Shown: positions 29,201-54,110 of the stretch, in pieces
How the letters are laid out: each line of letters begins with the position of its first letter
Numbering within the stretch: position 1 is the first letter of the stretch
Origin: Raillietiella orientalis
Taxonomy: Eukaryota
Length of the DNA: 64,000 nucleotides
Assembly: GCA_036172245.1 (NCBI GenBank)
Contig: JAYWIR010000002.1
Location: 1 to 64,000 of the forward strand
Direction: 5' to 3'
Notes under the pieces: model-generated
Told to the model about the DNA's origin: nothing
What the model saw: the letters and a program-made list of their open reading frames with translations, nothing else
The model's database searches: none
Translations under genes and position numbers: made by a program

Positions 29201-30149
29201 CCCGCCTACCAGATCAGGTCATGGAAGCGCGGATCCCTATACCTCCAGAAAGGCCACAGAAAAGGGGGAGTCGTGAACTGCGTGGTGGCATCCCAGCTCC
29301 GCAATGCTGGAAGAAATCCGCCCGCAGTCCACCATAAAAACACCGCAACTTCCTTTTCTGATGGATGCTCGCATCTCGAACAAGGACAAAAGATACATCT
29401 CCAATCCAGTCTGAGGACTATAGGAAATTTTTTCACAAGGACTGCAGAAACGAAACCCAAATGAGGTGTCTTCCTCTTCCCCCTTCCCCTTCCTTCCCCT
29501 CTCCCCCCATTTAACTCAGCTACGAGCATCTTGCGCTCTGCGGTATGAGCAAATATGGCGGCAGGATGCATAAGGGATGCGCCTACTACAAAACGAAGAT
29601 CGCATTCTTCCAGATGCCCATACGCCTCACTCAACATTTGAACATCCAGATTTTCTCCGAACCAGATCCAAGTTCGGACGCAGAAGGCGTCTTCGCCACA
29701 CTTCTTTGCAACAAGGAAGATGTCCGTTCCTTCAGCTGACATGGGCCTATTCTTTGTCAACGTGGACAGACTGGACTGTTACAATTTTGCTCCAGTCTGC
29801 TCATATTCCGCTCATTTCCCATATATCACTGGGCTTCAGCATAGAGCAGCATTCATCTGCTTACATTTCATCAGCATTGGGTATAACAGTGGCTAAGTAC
29901 TCTCCTGCTATTTGAGCACATTTGGAGGCGTGTAGCAAAGGCTACGTGTGCTGAATTGGACCTCTTGCCCAGCTCAAGCTCACGCTTCTGCAATGAAAGA
30001 ACTCACACTCCAATGGAGAGCTTATGTAAAATGGGCACGGGCTAGCAGCATTTATCGATCTGTAAGTTTTCAATCACCATGAAATGTTGAGGATACTAGC
30101 TTCTGCAGAAACACCAGCACTGCATCCTGTTCGGTCAGTTTGGATATGG

Positions 30150-30600: not shown

Positions 30601-31919
30601 CTGAAAGCTTCTCGGAATATTCCCTTGGAGCTGAAAGCACAGATAAACCAGCAATAAGAAGAGGGTACGCCCAAAACCACCTACCCGCTTTCTCTAAGCA
30701 GAAGGAAAGAGGAAATGCCACTGTGGGCGAAGAACTGTTCCATCTATGGAAAAGGTAGTCTCGCCATCGGCATGGAAGAAAGCATCTGAGACAAGCGCAA
30801 AGGTCAAAAAGAAGAAATGTCACCATTCTCAGATGATGGAAAATCCAAGGGTCAAACCATTGCTGGGGATTGGCTACTCATTGGGTTTGAAAAGCCACAG
30901 AAAAGAGTTTGAATAGAAACAGTTCGAAGCTTCTGTGGAGGCGACCTGGAGAAGAGCTTCTTGATGGATTCAGAATTTTATGTCAAGAGTCGAGAAAGAG
31001 CAGAGTCGAGCAAAGACACTTTCGGATGGAGGAAAACCACGAGATCGGGATCAGAATCCTTGGAAGGACGCGAAAACGTGAGACAAGAAAATCGTTGCTA
31101 GTGCTTGTGGAAACCTTGAGATGAGAGGCTGCTAGTCAACTTCTTGGATGCACAGCACTAAGCAGAGAGACTCAGAACGTCAGCGGTATCAATCCTTAAG
31201 TGTCCGTAACTCAGAACGCCCCACAGGGCAGGTTAGTAAAAGTGAAGAAAAAGACACTTCCAGTGAAGCCATAGGTTGAGCAAGAGAAAGTTCACGATTC
31301 AAGCACTGAAGAATCCCTCACATATTTGCTGTCAGGACAGAGAGATGGAGAGTGGTGCGCGCCGTGAGCTTTTGCCTCTGTTAAAGGAGCCCGCAGTTCC
31401 CTTTAGAACCACAGTCATTCCTACTTGCGTATCTCGAGCAGCGGATTCAGAACGAACTCGGATAAATCGAAATTCAAAAAATCGAAACTGCCATCCTTAA
31501 CTGGCTGGACAGAGCGCTGGAAAACAGTTTGATGATGATGCTGTTTTTTTTTTTTTTTTTTTTTTTTTCCCCCTGGTTACAGACGTGCGGATGATTTACA
31601 GCGAACACTGATAGCTTGGATGCACAGGCAGCATCTCAAGGGCTCGGAATGCATCCCCGATCGACTTGATACGATGCGCTGATATCACACACTCTTATGC
31701 GAAAACAGAGCGCCGATCCACGTACTGGGTCAAGTTTGTGGCTGAAATCTTGACTGCTGCATGGCTCCCGTTCAAGTGGCTGAAAAGCCGGTTCCGTACA
31801 GGCGCCACTCGATTTACCTCACGGGTGCCTGTCCCCGTCATTGGTGTCATTGAATGAACCGATATTCCGATGAGCTTTCAGGAGGATTACGTGTGTGTGT
31901 TCTTTTCTTTATTTTGCAG

Positions 31920-32671
31920 GTTATGGAAACATTGCTCCCAAGACAAACACAGGCAAGATAATGACTATGTTGTATGCGTTGCTAGGGATACCCCTCATGC
32001 TCCTCTATCTGGCAAATATCGGTTCTTTCCTGGCCAATGCCTTCAAATTTACTTATTCTAAACTGTGTCGGTGCAGATCAATAAGAAAACGGCCCAGGTA
32101 CCTAGTGGTGTCTGAAAACATCCACCTGGACAACGTTCCATCCCTGCAAATCTCCGAAAGCAATCCTCAAGAATCCTTCGCGGTTCTTAGCCAGCAAGAT
32201 TCCCTGCAGCCATCTTCTTGCCTGGTGGAAATCGGAGAATCCACCTCGCTGACGCAAGAGCAGGAGAAGGACAGAAGCGTGCCACACAACAGTTCGTTCT
32301 TCACTTTAGACGGTGATGCTCAAAAAGACGTCCCCTCGATGAATCAAGTCAGAGTGCCGATCAGCTTGGTGCTCCAAGTTCTCGTGCTCTATATATGCAT
32401 CGGAGCAGCCATCTTTTCCCAGTGGGAAGGATGGGATTTATTGAATGGTGCCTATTTCTGTTTCGTGACATTGACCACTATCGGGTTTGGGGACCTCGTG
32501 CCTGGAAGTTCCGTGTTAAGTGCTGAGACGGAGGAGGCCAAGATAGTCATTTGCTGTCTCTACCTGCTGCTCGGATTGGCGACTTTGGCGATGGCACTGA
32601 GTTTGGTGCAGGAAGAAGTGGTGGCAAGACTCAAAAATATAGGACGTGTGCTGGGAATCGTCCAGGAATGA
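31920..32671 (+). CDS. K2P potassium channel, exon 3 (end of filter 1, M2-M4, pore 2, stop)
   Basis: Acceptor TTTATTTTGCAG; G+GT completes TIGYGNIAPKT; second filter YFCFVTLTTIGFGDLVP; TGA at 32669-32671. The joined CDS is 1161 nt (386 aa). Confidence 0.95.
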
Positions 32672-35600: not shown

Positions 35601-37312
35601 CATATGAGCATCTTGCAAACAAAGATAAGATGGCATGAAAGCACTTTTGGCCATAAACTGTCTCGAGCAGTTAGGCTGTCTCAAGGATTCAACTTGCAAA
35701 CTACAATAGCCACTGAAACACTGTGGGTTTTTTTTCTTCTTCATTCCAAGTCAGGTACCAAAGGAAGCCATAAACATTATCAGCATTCCTTACCGAATGT
35801 TCTACTGACGCCTCCAAATTCCCCCTCGAAATTTCAAGTTTCTCAACCAACCAATTATGGACTGTGCACAGAGTAATTTGTTTAAAATGTATGCATGCAT
35901 GGTGTTACAAGACCAACGAATAATACAATTAACCATAGTGAAAGTGGTCATCGTTTCTTCGGGTATACTCAGTGAAAATAATCATTGTTTTAAAAAGAAA
36001 CAGAATTATATTAACGTGGACTGTCAGTGCTGTCATTCAAGAGCAACTCTGTGTTGTCTATGAAAAATAAGAGGAACTTTTCATTGGTACCTCAAATAGG
36101 TCGTTCAAGCATGCATTGTCTGAGCTACCAGAACCATGCTTTGTGGACCATCATAATATTTGATGTCGGTCATTCGTAGCTCCTGCTCTTCAAACTTACC
36201 AAAGATCGTTCCTGATGCTAATTGGATGTTAAATCATTTATCTAATTCGATCTCTGTCACGTTACCATTGTAAAAAAACAAACTATGATAACAAAACAGA
36301 GATCACGAGAACCGATTGCAATAGACTCGAATAGCTTCTTTGGCTCGAATTTCACGTCCAACACGTTCAGAATCGACATGGATGCCAATATTCCCTGCGA
36401 ATGAGTGAAAACGAGCTTTACCACTGCTGATTTTATATACGTATTACGGAATTAAGAATTCCATTCATGGAAAAGTTGTGCTATTATCCTTCTTTATTTA
36501 ACATCTGGTCACTTTGCTCCTTTTTTTTTTTTGTTATGCATTGATAAGTTGCTGTTTGTTTCTACGAGGGTATTGAAAAGAGATGAATCTAGGTTTTCCT
36601 CTATAGGAACTGTTGCATACATATGGAAAGAAGCATATTTTTGTGTCTGCGTGGTTTGTCTCGGTACTTAATCCTCCTTATGAGGGCAAAGTTGCATTAT
36701 TATTCTGACACGAAAAGTGGCAGTGGTACGGTAGAAGAAATAGAAAATAGCATTGCTGTGCAATTGAAAAGCATGCAGCCGTTGAATTTCTTGTTGGAAG
36801 TACGTCATCGGAGAATGAGCACCAGTCGACGAGTGACCATGGCAACATGGTACTGTTCACGGAGATGGACAAAGCGCAGCAGAAACTGTGTACGCACCAG
36901 ATAGCTGATTTGCTGAACAAAACGTATAGCAGGGGACCTTACATGGACTATTCAATAACACACACCGCTCTGCTTATTGAAAAACACTCTCCGTTCTTAC
37001 CACTTCAAGAAGCTGATGCTGTATGTTGCAGTGACTCTTGGGAGTACGGAAAATGTACACACGTTTTTCTCATGCTGACTGGTTTGAAAAGCAGATGAAT
37101 GAATTTTATTGCCATTAAGATGAGGGCGAGTGCTTCGGCTCGCACATCGTAACAGGAAACGAAATCGGACTGCTTTACAACGAACTTCAGAGTAGGGACG
37201 GTAAAATATCCCCAGAAGTGACATCATTGACAAAAGGTTTGGGCCGAATCATCTGCGTGAAAAGTCGCTCTTACGAATTGGAAGAATGCAAAGCGAATGC
37301 TACTTTGCTGTT

Positions 37313-37381
37313 GCTTCCTAGTAAATTAGTAATTTACTAGGAAGCGACCAGGAAGTAAATTACTTCTTAGTGACTTCCTGG
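37313..37381. repeat. Two adjacent palindromes at the left insertion junction
   Basis: GCTTCCTAGTAAATTA-G-TAATTTACTAGGAAGC (perfect 16-bp arms, 37313-37345) and CCAGGAAGT-N16-ACTTCCTGG (37348-37381). Confidence 0.9.
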
Positions 37382-37572
37382 ACGAAACCCACCAAGAGAA
37401 AACGGTCGTTTTGACAAAGATAAGACACAAAAGACGTACAATTTCATAGGAAAGTACATAAAAGCAAAAGGTCGAGAACCGCGCAAGGCAATTAATACAT
37501 TAACCAAATTTATTCGAGTTCAGGAGGAAAATAATGTAAAATCAGCAAGAATAAGACTGGTGAGGAATATGC

Positions 37573-37975
37573 TACTTCCTGCATAGGTAACCCGCATATT
37601 ATCCTAGCCAATTGCTCAAACTGACTAACGTTACATGCATCCAAGCTCCAGTGGCAGGAATTGTGAGGTCTTGGAGCTAGTTCGTTAACTAGCAGCTTAT
37701 TATTTCTAGTAATGAAAAATTCAATAGCAAGGATTCCTACTGCATCAAGCGCATCTGCTATTTTCTCTGCGGTTTGTTGAGCTAATTTACTATCTATTTT
37801 AGCTGGCACTGTTGAAGCATCAAGTATTCCATCAACGTGGTGATTTTCTGCTATGGGAAAAAAAGTCACTTCACCGTTTTTATCTCTTGCAATAACTGTT
37901 GAAGCCTCTTTGAGTAAATCAACACCTGCCTCGAGGATATACTTTGTGTTCCAGCAAAGGGAAACAAATTGTTTC
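37573..37975 (-). pseudogene. purK: Internal fragment of bacterial N5-CAIR synthetase (ATP-grasp domain)
   Basis: One open frame: WNTKYILEAGVDLLKEASTVIARDKNGEVTFFPIAENHHVDGIL...GILAIEFF...LLVNELAPRPHNSCHWSLDACNVSQFEQLARIICGLP. It contains the PurK signature NE.APRPHNS.H and SQFEQ, and both ends of the gene are missing. Confidence 0.92.
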
Positions 37976-38175
37976 TCTTCTTGACTTTTCCTCCATTCAG
38001 CGCTCCTATTACGCTCCTCACCCTTCTTCTTTTGAATCCTGGTTTATCTGCAAATAATCTTCTGCCTCCAGGAGCCCATCCGTATGCATAAAATTTATTG
38101 TCTTTTATGCCTGATTCGTCTATAAATATTAAATCTCCTTTTCTTATTTTCGCCACTTTTTTGTAAATTCCGTCT
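37976..38175 (-). pseudogene. IS630-family transposase fragment (first catalytic Asp region)
   Basis: LIFIDESGIKDNKFYAYGWAPGGRRL...SVIGAL matches the IS630 motifs (Y/F)IDE(S/A)G, YGWAPxG and SxIGAL. Confidence 0.85.
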
Positions 38176-38242
38176 GAAGCTATTATTTATCTTCAGTCTG
38201 AGCACACAAAACGATAAAAAATTCACTGTACTTGGCTCCTTA

Positions 38243-38405
38243 TGGTTAATTTTTTGCACTATGTGCACCCCATGTCATTAAACTTTCAAGGTTTCTACCT
38301 ACCTAATATAAACTAAAATGCGCTTGTTAAAGGGTTTAACACAGTAAAAAACGCCAATTTAAAAAATAGATAGTGAATAACTAGCTAACAGGGTTTCTTT
38401 TGCCT
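38243..38405 (+). repeat. Wolbachia-type AT-rich intergenic repeat unit, ending at the IS110 insertion site
   Basis: AAAAACGCCAATTTAAAAAATAGATAGTGAATAACTAGCTA...GGGTTTCTTTTGCCT resembles, from memory, a dispersed Wolbachia intergenic repeat. Not verified by search. Confidence 0.5.
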
Positions 38406-38407
38406 TG

Positions 38408-38413
38408 TATATT
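38408..38413 (+). promoter_or_regulatory. Candidate sigma70 -10 box of the IS110 circle-junction promoter
   Basis: TATATT begins 3 nt inside the left end and ends 8 nt before the first bridge-RNA stem. In IS621 the -10 lies in the left end and the -35 in the right end, which is absent here. Confidence 0.55.
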
Positions 38414-38419
38414 GTAAAA

Positions 38420-38589
38420 AGCATCTAATGTTTTAGGCTGTAGCATTAGGTGGAGAAGGGAAAAACTCTGGCTTTTGCCTTAGATATATAATCTGTAAAA
38501 AAGAAAAGAGTTCCCTTCTCAAAAGTAAAGGCTGGACGGTATCGTAGAAAGACCTAAATGGTTCTAATTCTATATTCAGCCTTACTTTT
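38420..38589 (+). ncRNA. IS110 bridge RNA (5' hairpin, target-binding loop, donor-binding loop lacking its right donor guide)
   Basis: Hairpin 38422-38452. Stem GAGAAGGG..AACTCT/AGAGTTCCCTTCTC encloses guides CTTTTGCCT (38472-38480) and AAAAAAG (38497-38503). Stem AAAAGTAAAGGCTG/CAGCCTTACTTTT encloses ACGGTATC (38536-38543). The first guide is identical to the flank at 38397-38405. Confidence 0.82.
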
Positions 38590-38597
38590 CATTTTTA

Positions 38598-38745
38598 ATG
38601 GTAGCGTATGGGATGATCAACAACTTTCTGGGCATAGATCTATCAAAAGATCGCTTTGATGTTTGTCTCTCATTCATAAGTAAAAAAGGTAAACGTGAAA
38701 CTAGGAAAAGGAGCTTTAAGAACGATGATAGTGGGTTTCAAGGCT
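38598..38745 (+). pseudogene. IS110 recombinase N-terminal fragment (RuvC-like DEDD domain, first Asp)
   Basis: MVAYGMINNFLGIDLSKDRFDVCLSFISKKGKRETRKRSFKNDDSGFQG matches the IS110 motifs GID.SK..(F/L)DV and F.N...G. Too short to appear in the ORF track. Confidence 0.88.
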
Positions 38746-38777
38746 CCTTTGATTATTACTGACTATTATGAGAAGAG

Positions 38778-38893
38778 CTATAAAATCATCTCTGACAGAT
38801 ACAGAAATAGACGAAAACATTTTGGTTTAAGATTTAATTTGATTGCTGCTGTTCACAATTCTGAGCTCCCTATATGAATTTTGAAACAAGTCC
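38778..38893 (+). pseudogene. IS5-superfamily (ISL2-like) transposase C-terminus with probable right terminal repeat
   Basis: YKIISDRYRNRRKHFGLRFNLIAAVHNSEL* matches KI..DRYRNRRKRFGLRFNLIA.IYN.EL. It is followed by TTTTGAAACAAGTC. Confidence 0.75.
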
Positions 38894-38894
38894 A

Positions 38895-39025
38895 TTAACA
38901 GAGTCTTTTGGCTGCCATTTGCTCTATCTTCCAACATATTCACCAGATTTGAATTCTGTAGAACACTGTTGGCATAGCATCAAAAGTCGCCTCAGACCTC
39001 TAATGCATCAACACACAGATTTACA
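38895..39025 (+). pseudogene. IS630-family transposase C-terminal fragment (catalytic Glu region)
   Basis: FGCHLLYLPTYSPDLNSVEHCWHSIK matches LP.YSPDLNPIE..W. It lies on the opposite strand to the other IS630 piece. Confidence 0.88.
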
Positions 39026-40181
39026 TGCTTCCTAGTAAAGATGCAGTAGGAGAAAATCTGCTATTATCATTAATTCCAAGCAAAGGTTCGGCAGTTTTTA
39101 ACCCCAAAGCAAGTGAACTCGCACAGTTCCACCTGAGGAGCAGCGTGGCAATGCAAGACCGCAGATAAGGCGAGTGCTTCTGCTCCTTACTTTCATGACA
39201 TCAAAGTATTCGCCCTTAAGGTGACTTGTCTCCCAAAATTTCTACCTGCTCACAGAATCTTACGGGATCTTCCCAAGAAACCCTTCTTATAAAATAGAGG
39301 CTGCCTCGGAATTGCTCTGGTCAGATTACGAAAGTGAGAAGAAATTTGGACGGTCATATAAATTGCTGATTCGGGGAGGTTGAATGTATCACCTGCCAGC
39401 ATACCCTCGAGTATGTCTCCAAGTATTTTCATTAGTTGGCCTATGCTTCTCACAGGCTGATTCAATGATTGTTTCACAAAGTTCTGTGTCCTTTGAAACC
39501 AAAAACTAACGATTATGGAAAGTTTGACTAGGAATGAAAAATAGAATTAGTTTTCGCGTAAAATTGAAACAAAAGCTTTAGATTCGGTTGACGTCATGAC
39601 GCTGATTCACCTCTCAACAGAGAACGATTTGCCTCTTCCGTTTCACGCTACGTCGAAGTAATGAATTCCCAGCTTCCTAATGATAAACCTTGCAATAAAC
39701 AAAAAATCCACTTGACCAAACTTCCACCCAGTTTGGAAGGCAATGCTTGCGTGTATTACACAATTATCATCAGGTAAAAGAAAAGAAAAAAAATCCACAT
39801 AAACACTGACAAAAGCTAAATTATTTTTAAACGAACGTTTTCCATCTTTTCTTTTGCAAATGCTGAGACTAAAATGTCAATGCTCTTCACAATGCATTTT
39901 GTAATAGAAATACTAGATTTAAGCATGATACTTGCAACTGATGAAAGCTAAATACTGTTGCTCAAAACGCATCGCAAATGTTGGTATGCCTGCATAAAAA
40001 GATTGTAACGCGGCAAATGTCTATCAGCAGTTGCTGGAAATTTCCTGCAGATATTTATTATTATTCCTTGCATTTCAATATACCCTTGAAAAAAATTCCT
40101 TTATAAGTAATATCAAATGATAGCAACTGAACATATAAAACAATAATCCTTTATTAACATGGGCATTAATATTTGCAATGC

Positions 40182-43100
40182 TTACTCTAGAGCAGAATCT
40201 TTAGGTTTTTTACTTACTTCATCCGATTTAGTCACAGGGATAGGACAATTAACATTTGCATCAGCAGATTTGGCATGAACTTTTGTTTTGGACTTTGACT
40301 GAAAGGTATTTTTTTTGTTCAATGCCTGCAATCCAGAAGGACCAGTTTTATCATAAGCAAGTGGGCGAGCTTTTGCTGAATTTTTTATTGAAACGGGGCA
40401 TGCTCGGTTTGTGCTACTGGTTGGCATATGCCTTTTCACAGGCTCCTGAGAATTAGAAACCGGACAACCAGAAATGTTACGCTTTAGTGGCGGATTTTGG
40501 TCATTGCTGGATAATTTTTTAGCACCGTGTAAAACGCTTGATGCAGATGCCCCACTATGTTTAGTGGCTGTAGAAACTACCTTTGCAGGCTGACTAGATG
40601 CAACTGGTTTTTTACCAGGTATTTTTAAATCTTTTGTTTGTTCCCGTTTACATGTTTGAGCTGTAGTTGAAGACCTTGCAGGAGACTGTTTACTCTTTCT
40701 GATTTTATTTTTTGCATCTGTAGATTCTTTGGACAGGGGTTCCACTTTTGGTTTTCTATGTGATACAGCCAATTGTTCCTTATTCTTATGAACTACTGTT
40801 TGTTGCTTCACATCCACATGATGTTTAGACTCTGAAGTACTTCCTTTATTTTTCAGTCTGTCAATACCAGGTTGCCTCTTCTGACAAGCTGCAGAAGCTT
40901 TTGCTTGACCTGACTGCCCTTTTGGAAGCACAGGTGAATGCCTTTTGTTTCCCTTAATTATTTCAGTTTCTTTGGCTGACACCTTCCCTAAAACTGCATC
41001 CTTTCGAAGATGCTGTATATCTTCTTCCACTAGTTGCAGCACATCATCCTCAAGCTTCTGATTATCCTTCTTCCCCACAGTATAGACTTCCTTTCTCACA
41101 CAAGGAGGCTCATCAGCTACTGGACCCTTAGGAGGATCTTTCATTTTGACAATAACATCTTCATGCACTTCCTTAGGGAGAGAGACAGTAGGTTCTTTGC
41201 TCCCAGAAGGATCATTTGAACCTGCATCCTTGGGCTCAGTATCAGAAAAATCTTTTTTATTACATACACCTTTTCCATGGCTGTCTTTTCCCTTTAACTC
41301 TTTAGAATCGTCATAATGTGGTTCCTTGCCATCATTTAGAGGAGTCTGATCTTGACTTTTATCTTCAGCTAATCTTCTTGGAAGTTCAGGATTAACCACA
41401 TTTGGAGTAGGATCCTGTTTATTTGATAGCTTGTCTTCTGAAGGTGACAACACATCTTGTTTTTCTTCTGTTGTATGTTTTCTCTTTTCATCCTTTCCAA
41501 ATGAATGCACATTGTCAGCTGCATTGCATTTTTCTTGGGATTCATCATCATCACTCTTTTTGTCCTTTTTCAAGACAAATTCTTGATTCAGAAAATCTTG
41601 GTTTAATGATTCTCTCAAAGAATTGATGTCTATGAACTGTTTACGATTGATGTTTTGTTCTTTTTCAGAAAAACACGACTGATTTTTTGGATTTTTGTCA
41701 TCTTTTCTAACAATATCATATGAATGAATTACCTCTGCCTGTTTTGATGCAAACGAGAAATCCAAAAACTTGTTCATTCCAGATTCTGTTTTGAGAGTTA
41801 CAGGAAGTTCAGGCTTGGGAATTACAGGGAGTTCAGGCTTGGGAGTTACAGAGAGTTCAGGCTTAGGAATTACAGGGAGTTCAGGCTTGGGGGTTATGGG
41901 GAATTGAAGCTTGGGAGTTACAGGGAGTTCAGGCTTGGGAGTTATGGGGAATTGAAGCTTGGGAGTTACAGGAAGTTCAGGCTTGGGAGTTACAGGGAGT
42001 TCAGGTTTGGGAGTTACAGGGAGTTCAGGCTTGGGAGTTACAGGGAGTTCAGGTTTGGGAGTTACAGGGAGTTCAGGTTTGGGAGTTACAGGGAGTTCAG
42101 GTGTGGGAGTTACAGGGAGTTCAGGCTGGGGGGTTACAGGGAGTTCAGGCTGGGGGGTTACAGGGAGTTCAGGCTGGAGAGTTACAGAGAGTTCAGGCTT
42201 GGGAGTTACAGGGACTTCAGGCTTGGGAGTTAAAGGAATTTCTTCCTTGGAAGTTCCAGGGAATTCTGGCTTCAAAATCGATGGGGGCTCCACTTGAGTG
42301 CTTCCAAGTTTGCCCAAATTTTGTGTTAGTGAATTATTGTTAACTAAATGGACATTGTCTTCATAAGGGGAATAAAAAGACGTAGTTTCTTCTAATGCAT
42401 GGGCATTATCCACTCCAGTCACAGAAGATTTAGTCAAAAGTGGTTCTGATTTTGGATTCACTGATGCAACTTCTTTCTTATCTTCTTGATTTGCAAAGTC
42501 TTGCACTCGTTTATCTAAACCAGAAAAATTTTCAGGTTGACCAATTTCTTCCTCTGGAAGTAACAGAATACTGCTTCCTTGCTTCATACTGCAATATTTC
42601 CAGTCATCATCAGAATCATCAACAGCTTCTTCCACTAATCCTTCAGGCATCTCATCTGATGCTACTAGAAGTCGTATACTTCCTAAAATGAATGTGATAT
42701 ACTTACAAGCAGATTTATTATCTGTACCTTCATTGTCATACGAGTCATCAGCTAAATTGTATTTACTGTCAAATGTACTGACATCACCATAATTACTTGG
42801 AAGATCCTTACTCATGGCTACCTTCTTGGATGCAAAAGGATCTATAAGAACTACTACTTTTGAAGTGTTTTTATTCTTGACTCGAATATTTTGAGGATGA
42901 TTAAGATATACAACTATCACAGTAATATTGTCTTGTGACCCCTTGCAAATGGCTGTTTTCACCAATTCTGCACTAGCACTGTACCACTGGTCTAGAAGAG
43001 AAAAAAAAAATTACAGCGCTCCCGATACAAATGAACCTTCCTTGTTGTGTCACACGTACACTCAACTTGATTACTGAATTTTAATTTTAAAACTTGCGCA

Positions 43101-52390: not shown

Positions 52391-54110
52391 ATGCTACAGA
52401 AGTGTAGTATGCCAGTTAGTGCATGTGTAGAACGTGTAGCCGAAAACAAAGAGTTTCCTTGCCCCGAAAATGCAGAAAATGGTTGGGTACATATCTGTGA
52501 AGAATATGCAAAAAACTGTTCGGTAATTTTATTGCAAAAAATAATAAGATATCTGAAATTAAATGCACAAACTATAGAATCGTTGTCATCTGAACAGATC
52601 ACATCCGAGTTTTACAGAGTATTTTCAAAAAATCTCATAAAGGAATTTAAAAAATGCATTGAAACCGATTCTACATTGTGTGCCGATGGTTTGGAAAATA
52701 CTTTGAAATGTGATGCAGTGGATTACAGTGAAAAAAATTTGAAAGCAGGTTTATCATGTAATTCAGATATAAATATATCCAACATAAAAAAAAAGAAATC
52801 TTTCTTGCCCAGTGTTAATTTTAGAAATTTGAAAAAGAGCATTTTTCGTAAACAGCACTCAGATGAAGTTGAACTTTCTTCAAGTAAACATGTGAAGCAA
52901 ACCAAAAAACAGATTATTAGAATTCCTGTTGAGTGCATTAAATCTGAAAACGTTTGTTACGTTTCCGGTGAAAATCTAGAAGGTGCTCAAAAATGGGAAA
53001 AAGGAAAACTAATTTTATTAAAAGCTGCAGCTGGACCAATGCTGGAATTTTATTCCCCTGCCAAGGTCTGTTTGATCTCTTAAATTTGTATGTGTATTGG
53101 TAGATGTTTACAGTTCATGCTTATTTAGAGTACCTATCCATCTGTTGGGATTTTCACTTACTTGATTGATGAGGTTAGGGAAACAACAAGATTGGAGATG
53201 CCTGATCATGACAATACATTTGTTATCAAGGTATTTCATAATGGCATTAAAATTAGCAAGTTTTTTTTTTTCTTCTGTAGATGCATACAAATATAGAGTT
53301 TGTGGTGGAAGTCCACGACAGTCTGAGTGTTCAAAATTGGCTCTCATGCATTCAGTCTTATTGCAAGAATGATTGGGATTTTAGAGATGTTTGGGAAAGG
53401 TGAGAATATGGAGACGCACTCCACTTTGTTGATGGCTACTATTTAGTAAGAATGAACGACAGGAGCATCAATCCGATTTTAAAAAAGAGCTGTCTGAAAA
53501 CATTGCTGCACCTAGCAGTAGGGTTCAAGAACCTAATGTGTGCCAGCCAGTGAAAGATGCTACTGATTTATCTTACACCAAATTATCTGGTACTCAAATC
53601 AGTAAATCATTTGAAACAGAACGTTATGTCATTCCGGCTTTACAAGAATATCCATGGTGGCATGGAAACTTGTCTAGAGTAACTGCAACAGAGTTTGTGC
53701 TCCAAGGAGGCATGGCTTTTCATGGAGTATTCCTGGTACGGCGTAGTGAGACACGACATCATGAAATGGTTCTGACATTTAACTATGAAGCCAAAGCTAA
53801 GGTAAGATGCGCTTTCCCTTTTAAACTGTCACTTGGCCCCTTTCAGCATTTGCGTTTAACAGTCAACTCAACAGGACAATGCAGAGTACAGCATTTTTGG
53901 TTTGAGTCAATTTTTGATATGTTGGAACATTTTCGCTCATACCCCATACCCTTGGAATCTGGAGGATCATCAGATGTGTGCCTATCCAATTTTGTGATCT
54001 GTAATCAGCATAATACTAATCCAGTGTGCACACATCCGGGTTCAGTGCGAGCACACCGCTCATCCCTGGAATTGCCACCTGTTGGCGAGAATCCGTACAG
54101 TTTTATTTGA
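52391..54110 (+). CDS. SH2B: SH2B/Lnk-family adaptor protein (dimerisation helix, PH, SH2)
   Basis: Exons 52391-53065, 53129-53230, 53281-53399, 53447-53801, 53847-54110 (1515 nt, 504 aa). PH motifs LEFYSPAK and [22 protein letters not shown]2 [39 protein letters not shown]-terminus ENPYSFI. Confidence 0.93.

Follow-up and report, generated by a model that had tools for sequence, protein, structure and literature searches.

Bridge RNAs and the IS110 elements of Wolbachia

Since their description in 2024, bridge RNAs have been anticipated in the majority of IS110-group elements, so that finding one more is in itself unsurprising, and any IS110 element should have a guide that matches its own insertion site. 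The transfer of Wolbachia DNA to arthropods is equally well known, and the nuclear inserts that result from it are short, rearranged and pseudogenised stretches of DNA lying between host genes.

The closest described system is IS621 of Escherichia coli (Durrant et al., 2024, PMC11208160; PMC11208158). As far as the text available of these two papers describes it, IS621 shares with the elements discussed here a left end of about 191–207 bp, the succession of a 5′ stem-loop, a target-binding loop and a donor-binding loop, a left target guide of 9 nt that reads as the top strand, a right target guide that ends in AG, a CT core, and a promoter split over the junction of the right end with the left end, found here in the Wolbachia relatives of our element. 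The target is again a short repeat with many copies in the host genome, IS621 also inserting into repeated elements. According to the same text (PMC11208160), the left target guide base-pairs to the target's bottom strand and both target guides include the CT core; the left guide should therefore read as the top strand of the left target followed by CT, as is seen in the window. The recombinases match as well, as detailed below. The differences are of several kinds: the right target guide pairs seven bases (the core plus five) in most Wolbachia copies vs four in IS621, in the description available of the latter; the Wolbachia host is an obligate intracellular symbiont whose elements are known here from their sequence; and the window copy lacks a right donor guide, a right end and an enzyme. 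No match resulted when a full Wolbachia element was searched as DNA, in distant mode, against the genomes of E. coli, and the donor sequence ACAGTAT-CT-TGTAT, which the first-pass annotation gave for IS621, occurs nowhere in the main text of PMC11208160.

On the side of the endosymbiont, the IS110 groups ISWen2 and ISWpi12-14 of Wolbachia were catalogued in 2011, a genome containing many degraded copies besides some intact ones (Cerveau et al., PMC3205602), and ISWpi12 is found on plasmid pWCP (PMC6401122). These groups share with the present elements the host genus, the IS family and the abundance of degraded copies; both papers predate bridge RNAs and, in the text available of them, describe the ends of the elements only as non-coding flanks. 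In the literature covered by a full-text search, no paper links Wolbachia with bridge RNAs. The supplements of Durrant et al. may list Wolbachia orthologues.

A bridge RNA gene at the left end of a truncated element

The window, by which we mean the whole 64-kb stretch of DNA analysed, carries at positions 38406–38757 what we consider quite probably to be the left 350 bp of a Wolbachia IS621-like IS110 element: a bridge RNA gene followed by about the first 49 codons of the recombinase, inserted at this site in the bacterium, transferred later to an arthropod chromosome, and inert there. Judged by the features tested, the element can be assigned to the known IS621-type bridge RNA systems, the mechanism of which is already known.

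The non-coding left end, which is the bridge RNA gene, occupies 38406–38597 on the forward strand, with 79–87% identity to Wolbachia copies and a covariance model score of 210 bits (E 6.4e-49). When 38397–38760 was compared by BLAST with 16 Wolbachia or Rickettsiales loci, retrieved via the recombinase reading frame of the window, this identity of 79–87% started one to five bases before 38406, and in the alignment of the 16 loci each copy begins with TGTAT right after CT (TT in one), while the DNA further left is unrelated. In the window, as in 31 of the 32 copies that were compared with it in the first set described below (L015 has TT), TGTAT comes after CT, and CT also follows ACGGTAT at the right ends of 14 copies. 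The left end of the window thus diverges from living copies by 13–21%, a figure in which divergence of the donor and decay after transfer are inseparable. One locus, G001:298052, was considered as sharing the insertion site and rejected, as flank and guide differ there.

The segment 38406–38600 folds with a minimum free energy of −59.5 kcal/mol (z −5.53; none of 200 shuffles was as stable) into a 5′ hairpin and two domains, each made of a stem, an internal loop and a stem-loop. The 5′ stem-loop lies at 38422–38452 (forward strand, as are all parts of this RNA) and is present both in the fold of the window and in the consensus fold. It is followed by the target-binding loop domain at 38453–38520, with outer stems, an internal loop and an inner hairpin that are seen in the folds and in covariation, and by the donor-binding loop domain at 38521–38589, recognized in the folds and damaged by an 11-nt deletion after 38577. 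A search of Rfam 15, with E values up to 1, left the leader without a match.

The guides can be placed in this frame. The left target guide, CTTTTGCCT at 38472–38480, fills the 5′ side of loop 1, falls in the hypervariable column block of the family and is identical at nine of nine positions to 38397–38405, that is, to the left target CTTTTGC plus the CT core at the element junction (forward strand), directly after which TGTAT marks the start of homology with 16 Wolbachia IS110 copies. A T follows both occurrences, so that the match extends to ten of ten. As a word, CTTTTGCCT is not rare, with three occurrences in the 64-kb window vs 1.22 expected, and three or more in 9 of 100 shuffles; what is not due to chance is its placement at both sites, one copy ending at the first base of the Wolbachia IS110 homology and the other occupying loop 1. 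On the 3′ side of loop 1, the right target guide AAAAAAG (38497–38503) is complementary to CT+TTTTT; it predicts CT followed by TTTTT to the right of the core, and unbroken copies of the target repeat have a fitting sequence behind their CT. On the 5′ side of loop 2 stands the left donor guide, ACGGTATCG at 38536–38544 (with ACGGTATC as 38536–38543), and the right ends of 14 related elements read ...ACGGTAT, then CT.

The bridge RNA leader occupies 192 nt upstream of the N-terminal fragment of an IS110 recombinase, on the same strand. This 5′ fragment of the gene (38598–38762, forward strand) matches the IS110 DEDD Pfam family with E 0.0075, below the curated cut-off, and its homology ends near 38744–38757. 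Compared with the full-length Wolbachia recombinase L001, the reading frame has 41 of 48 residues identical (residues 6–53), and the likeness stops after about residue 49. L001 itself, 345 residues long, contains both IS110 Pfam domains (PF01548, E 2.5e-26; PF02371, E 5.3e-23) and aligns with the IS621 transposase 8wt6 over 319 residues (E 2.4e-56) and with ISCro4, 9t56 (E 1.3e-54). Five identical copies with an open frame of 345 codons are found in the Wolbachia genome G002.

Most of this had been anticipated by the first-pass annotation, which had read the leader as a 5′ hairpin followed by two loop domains in an IS621-type three-part layout, had placed it ahead of an IS110 recombinase start, had pointed to AAAAAAG opposite the loop 1 guide with its AG complementary to the CT core, and had found the loop 1 word identical to the DNA ending at the left junction. 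The stability of the fold, the Pfam match together with the identity to L001, and the positions of both guides bear these statements out, the last of them with one base more than had been claimed.

The copy in the window is dead: it has no right end, its right donor guide is deleted, and homology to the recombinase is over after some 49 codons. Since the right end is missing, there is no left donor and no −35 box, and the donor side of this very copy is not comparable in the window. The 11-nt deletion, which is absent from all 19 homologues, removes the ACAAG segment that constitutes the right donor guide, and four further substitutions affect positions that are invariant in the same 19 sequences. 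It had been proposed that the element was non-functional because the recombinase is cut; the element is indeed dead and the cut is real, at about 49 codons, but it is not the sole cause, the missing right end and the deletion adding to it.

Covariation and spread of the RNA family

Twenty distinct left ends of the Wolbachia type yield a consensus fold of 46 pairs, in which the 5′ hairpin and the two loop domains recur; hypervariability in this alignment is limited to two blocks, the two sides of loop 1. Within the Wolbachia set alone, compensatory change is seen in two of the 46 pairs. The model built from the Wolbachia copies retrieves this RNA on a Bandiella plasmid (E 6.3e-22) and on a Rickettsia plasmid (E 3e-15), then in seven full-length matches at loci of Eremiobacterota/Vulcanimicrobiota (E 4.9e-06 to 0.014) and, more weakly, in an element of an Enterobacter plasmid (E 0.035), in each case immediately upstream of an IS110 gene. 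In an alignment of 15 rows, which includes one weak minus-strand match and three partial matches, 92.1% of 443 cells pair, vs 36–42% when partners are slid by one to three columns, and changes on both sides occur in 38 of the 46 pairs, vs 10–18 when slid (none of 500 shuffles); as this alignment was fitted to the structure of the model, its pairing figures lean towards that structure, the margin still being large.

Within Wolbachia, the RNA family is present in 41 of 60 species genomes. Among plasmids, a DNA search returned only the Bandiella and Rickettsia relatives, with 67–72% identity over parts of the sequence, and a protein search returned many IS110 genes, none of them labelled IS621. 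The Rickettsia and Bandiella plasmid relatives (L059:440–700 and L060:440–700) display a feature of their own: they have CA, not CT, at both junctions, and CA is also what their right guides, those for the top strand (..TG, ACATG), are consistent with, but the left guides, which pair with the bottom strand, still contain CT.

Guides and flanks in related copies

If loop 1 programs the target, guides and flanks should vary together. A first set, consisting of the window and 32 copies from five genomes, was aligned and its guide columns were compared with the flanks, against 20,000 permutations. For the left guide, with 27 distinct pairs of guide and flank, 109 of 189 non-core positions match, vs a permuted mean of 57.0; for the right guide, where 14 right ends could be mapped and gave 12 distinct pairs, 50 of 60 positions match vs 29.9. 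None of the 20,000 permutations reached either value.

A second set came from a search of 60 Wolbachia species genomes with the covariance model, which provided 30 loci, one per genome, 29 of them with a full left end by BLAST. Seven loci repeating the first set were dropped (L063, L065, L066, L068, L069, L081 and L082), as were L083, with the same guide and flank as L053, and L064, the flank of which is cut by a contig end; among the 20 loci kept are three rows of poor alignment, which tell against the reading. The left guide matches at 87 of 140 positions, vs 41.7 in permutations (0 of 20,000), and the right guide, over nine pairs, at 31 of 45 vs 15.0 (19 of 20,000). Related copies are not independent and the permutations treat them as if they were, so that these figures are not true probabilities. 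The two tests that had been set for the bridge RNA reading at the outset, covariation of the stems among homologues and insertion sites that track the sequence of loop 1, were therefore both passed, the former through distant relatives (38 of 46 pairs), the latter in each of the two sets.

The agreement is not universal. Poor matches to their own flanks are found in the second set for L077 (one of seven), L085 (two of seven) and L089 (none of seven), and in genome G005 fourteen copies mismatch their own left guide, 13 of them with matches at only one to four of seven positions. L077, in genome G052, stands directly after a sequence identical to the right end of another copy, with the flank ACGGTATCT, an arrangement suggestive of copies in tandem or of insertion at a site resembling the donor. 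Altogether, at least 29 different left target guides are found among the 62 rows examined.

The target repeat and its empty sites

To the left of the junction, 38174–38405 (strand not assigned) belongs to a multi-copy, MITE-like Wolbachia repeat, with 67–81% identity to dozens of copies in G001–G004, and this repeat, which ends in the left target and the core, is the insertion site of the IS110 element. Seven unbroken copies of the repeat were fetched, and all seven read TTTT or more after ...GCCT. One of them, L033, contains the whole 14-mer CTTTTGC-CT-TTTTT, while L034 and L035 share the exact 9-mer; the 14-mer of the unbroken repeat matches both target guides of the window copy. Counted exactly, this 14-mer is present 140 times in G002, 69 in G004, 11 in G001, eight in G003 and not at all in G005, vs zero or one occurrence in the same genomes for the reversed 14-mer used as a control.

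In one copy (L057:1116–1688, from G004) the repeat is a non-coding unit of about 570 bp bounded by perfect inverted repeats of 18 bp. The same copy carries the 14-bp target twice, within a direct repeat of 45 nt. The flank had been considered as part of an IS630 transposase gene; this was rejected, as the matching Wolbachia repeat is that non-coding element of some 570 bp, with inverted repeats of its own.

The left guide variant of the window is found in none of the 60 Wolbachia genomes, so that no living counterpart of it is known. As the target of the fossil is a Wolbachia repeat, fitted by both guides, insertion is likely to have occurred in the bacterium, before transfer. The window copy would have been aimed at CTTTTGC-CT-TTTTT, which is part of a small repeat with as many as 140 occurrences in one Wolbachia genome, and would have inserted into that repeat while still in Wolbachia; later, a short scrambled piece of Wolbachia DNA with the end of the IS110 element would have joined an arthropod chromosome, to remain inert there. 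We infer this order of events, insertion and then transfer, from the arrangement of the sequences.

A scrambled patch of Wolbachia-like DNA between arthropod-like exons

Wolbachia-like DNA in the 64-kb window is confined to 37375–39030, a patch of 1.65 kb put together from at least five truncated pieces, the orientation of which varies. The leftmost, at 37375–37568 (strand not assigned), resembles a multi-copy Wolbachia sequence, with 68–72% identity to several places in G001 and G003. It is followed on the reverse strand by a purK-like (ATP-grasp) fragment of 412 bp, cut at both ends (37569–37980; 76–84% identity to a single place in each of G001–G005; Pfam ATP-grasp E 3e-28, profile positions 94–179), and, on the same strand, by a fragment of an IS630-type (DDE_3) transposase that covers the N-terminal part of the domain only (37989–38156; Pfam DDE_3 E 6.2e-05, profile positions 1–47 of 146, below the curated cut-off). 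After the target repeat and the IS110 fragment, the right end of the patch consists of IS630-type transposase fragments with the C-terminal part of DDE_3 (38772–39030, forward strand; 76–89% identity to many copies in G002, G004, G003 and G005; Pfam E 8.8e-11). The GC content of the patch, 0.366, is close to the 0.39 and 0.38 of its flanks. Genes of the patch are cut short or decayed: of purK 412 bp are left, three pieces of IS are incomplete, and a private deletion affects the bridge RNA gene.

The surroundings are of another nature. An exon of a two-pore potassium channel lies at 31895–32671, with its best named relatives, at 36–46% identity, in mites, a millipede, spiders, ticks and horseshoe crabs; on the other side of the patch is an SH2 exon (53538–54110), and both flanking exons are arthropod-like. 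Near the patch, an open reading frame for 927 amino acids on the reverse strand (40182–42965) has no Pfam match; it contains, at 41791–42272, 20 copies of a 24-nt unit coding for a proline-rich repeat of the PELPVTPK type. About 20 bp to the left of the patch, 37301–37357 forms a near-perfect hairpin of 57 nt, with a weak miRNA-like Rfam match (E 0.34) far below the gathering score. Along the window, the GC content shifts sharply, from 0.59 over positions 1–25000 to 0.37 further on (34000–58000); in the GC-rich part, which extends to about 30 kb, 14 of the 15 long reading frames tested have no Pfam match, the exception being a weak Sir2 match at 29206–29760 (E 0.00052, below the cut-off).

A Wolbachia mosaic between arthropod-like exons makes nuclear transfer likely, and the patch, as assembled, is likely a nuclear Wolbachia insert in an arthropod chromosome. 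The evidence for this is that of the assembly, since the one public DNA run examined, X1 (word share 0.10), bridges no junction: its contigs at 37879–38029, 38076–38226 and 39697–39870 are short (151–174 nt) and identical to the window, and they speak neither for nor against integration or expression. The state of the DNA, short, rearranged and pseudogenised, is that of other nuclear Wolbachia inserts, here with 1.65 kb in 64 kb and known from the assembly. The earlier proposal of an endosymbiont of the Wolbachia type as donor agrees with the Wolbachia-like sequences of the patch; as for its transfer to a eukaryotic chromosome, the arthropod-like surroundings go with the proposal, while the evidence of integration itself is the assembly.

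Alternative readings

Two other explanations bear on how this DNA came to its place. Reads from the bacteria of an infected animal might have been misjoined into a host contig, and the patch would then not be chromosomal at all; neither junction is supported by reads, the contigs of X1 bridging none, which counts in favour of such an artefact. Misjoins, however, normally import a long intact stretch, whereas the pieces found here, at least five, are short and truncated and differ in orientation (412 bp of purK and 350 bp of IS110 are among them); we also find non-Wolbachia DNA on both sides, a bridge RNA gene marked by a private deletion of 11 nt and four private substitutions, and an identity of only 67–89% to five Wolbachia genomes, so that we regard a misjoin as unlikely. 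Still less probable is a donor other than Wolbachia, namely another intracellular bacterium of the Rickettsiales with the same IS family. The presence of the RNA and its recombinase on Rickettsia and Bandiella plasmids would fit such a donor, as would the fact that no tested genome comes closer than 87% at the left end; yet all 16 close loci are from Wolbachia or from a Rickettsiales metagenome-assembled genome that a genus search places with Wolbachia, the purK piece, which is no part of an IS, and the target repeat also match Wolbachia genomes, and a much greater distance separates the copies of Rickettsia and Bandiella, which show 67–72% identity over parts of their length only.

The other two concern the RNA. 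That the fossil is still in use by the host, for instance as a transcribed structured RNA, is favoured by a fold that is still very stable (z −5.53); a weak promoter-like site also spans the junction, though a scan that returns one site where 1.2 are expected by chance is uninformative. The bacterial −35 box, however, belongs to the right end, which is missing here, a deletion has taken the right donor guide, there is no recombinase gene, and among the public runs listed as sharing the sequence of the window there is no RNA run, so that continued use by the host is highly improbable. As to the view that AT-rich DNA produced both the nine-base match and the fold by chance, it can draw on the fact that the 9-mer alone is not rare; but its exact position at both places, the match of the right guide, the permutations within the family and the covariation of the stems all contradict it. 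The chance reading of the match is already refuted by the guide–flank permutation tests together with stem covariation, and the explanation as a whole deserves practically no credence. We therefore retain the reading of the locus as the left end of a Wolbachia bridge RNA element, inserted in the bacterium and then transferred.

Donor side and proposed mechanism

The donor side has to be read in the relatives of the window copy. The right ends of 14 of them consist of ...TTGACT, 11 nt, ACGGTAT and then CT. On the 5′ side of loop 2 the relatives read ACGGTATC(G/T), a left donor guide that fits right ends in ...ACGGTAT-CT; on the 3′ side, ACAAG, found in 19 of 19, is the complement of CT+TGT at the left end and thus the right donor guide. 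When the right end is joined to TGTATCTTG, a promoter sequence appears, with TTGACT as the −35 box, a spacer of 17 nt and TATCTT as the −10 box, in all 14 copies with a mapped right end, as far as their sequence tells; this is the arrangement of IS621, where the promoter is split over the same junction (Durrant et al., PMC11208160, in the text available).

The following scenario would account for these features. The excised circle would join the right and left ends of the element, and the join would create the promoter TTGACT, 17 nt, TATCTT, from which an RNA of about 180–190 nt would be made. Transcription of the Wolbachia elements and the ends of their RNA are predicted from the promoter and the fold, the RNA presumably starting some 15 nt into the left end, a short way ahead of the 5′ hairpin. 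Loop 1 would pair with both strands of the target, loop 2 with the joined ends of the element itself, and the recombinase would exchange strands at the CT core.

Perspectives for Wolbachia

The fourteen G005 copies that disagree with their own guides deserve a separate comment. They are near-identical IS110 derivatives of 2.5 kb (L038–L051; L054:104–2645) with a patatin-like reading frame (Pfam E 5.5e-10) and a recombinase frame that is broken as assembled, errors in the assembly of this metagenome-derived genome being possible. The target spelled by their own loop 1 is essentially absent from the genome (two matches at up to two mismatches, vs 24 for the reversed control), while eight of the 14 stand at sites of the AATAGAC-CT type, which is the target of a short subfamily residing in the same genome (L013, L014, L016 and L052); the one right flank that could be fully mapped, that of L054, reads CT+CTTGC and fits the target of the short subfamily, for which G005 offers 19 empty sites vs one in the control. 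Either trans guidance or a subsequent alteration of the loop could explain this situation. The location of these derivatives at the sites of another subfamily suggests that the bridge RNA of one element may move another that shares its ends, and it is possible, if rather doubtful, that Wolbachia harbours a naturally diversified and partly trans-acting bridge-recombinase system. To our knowledge, Wolbachia is without genetic tools and has so far resisted genetic transformation. Were such a system real, it would provide a native programmable recombinase in that very bacterium, and the extinct guide of the window would indicate a landing site of which one genome contains as many as 140 copies.

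The case of the window is thus a neat illustration and not a novel type of system: stranded in arthropod DNA, a guide still spells the site into which its element was once inserted. A dead fragment alone lets one read, via its guide, the sequence at which the element was aimed. The bridge RNA family, found in 41 of the 60 Wolbachia species genomes, has many different guides, and some of its copies look intact. An endogenous programmable recombinase in Wolbachia would be a reasonable candidate for testing.
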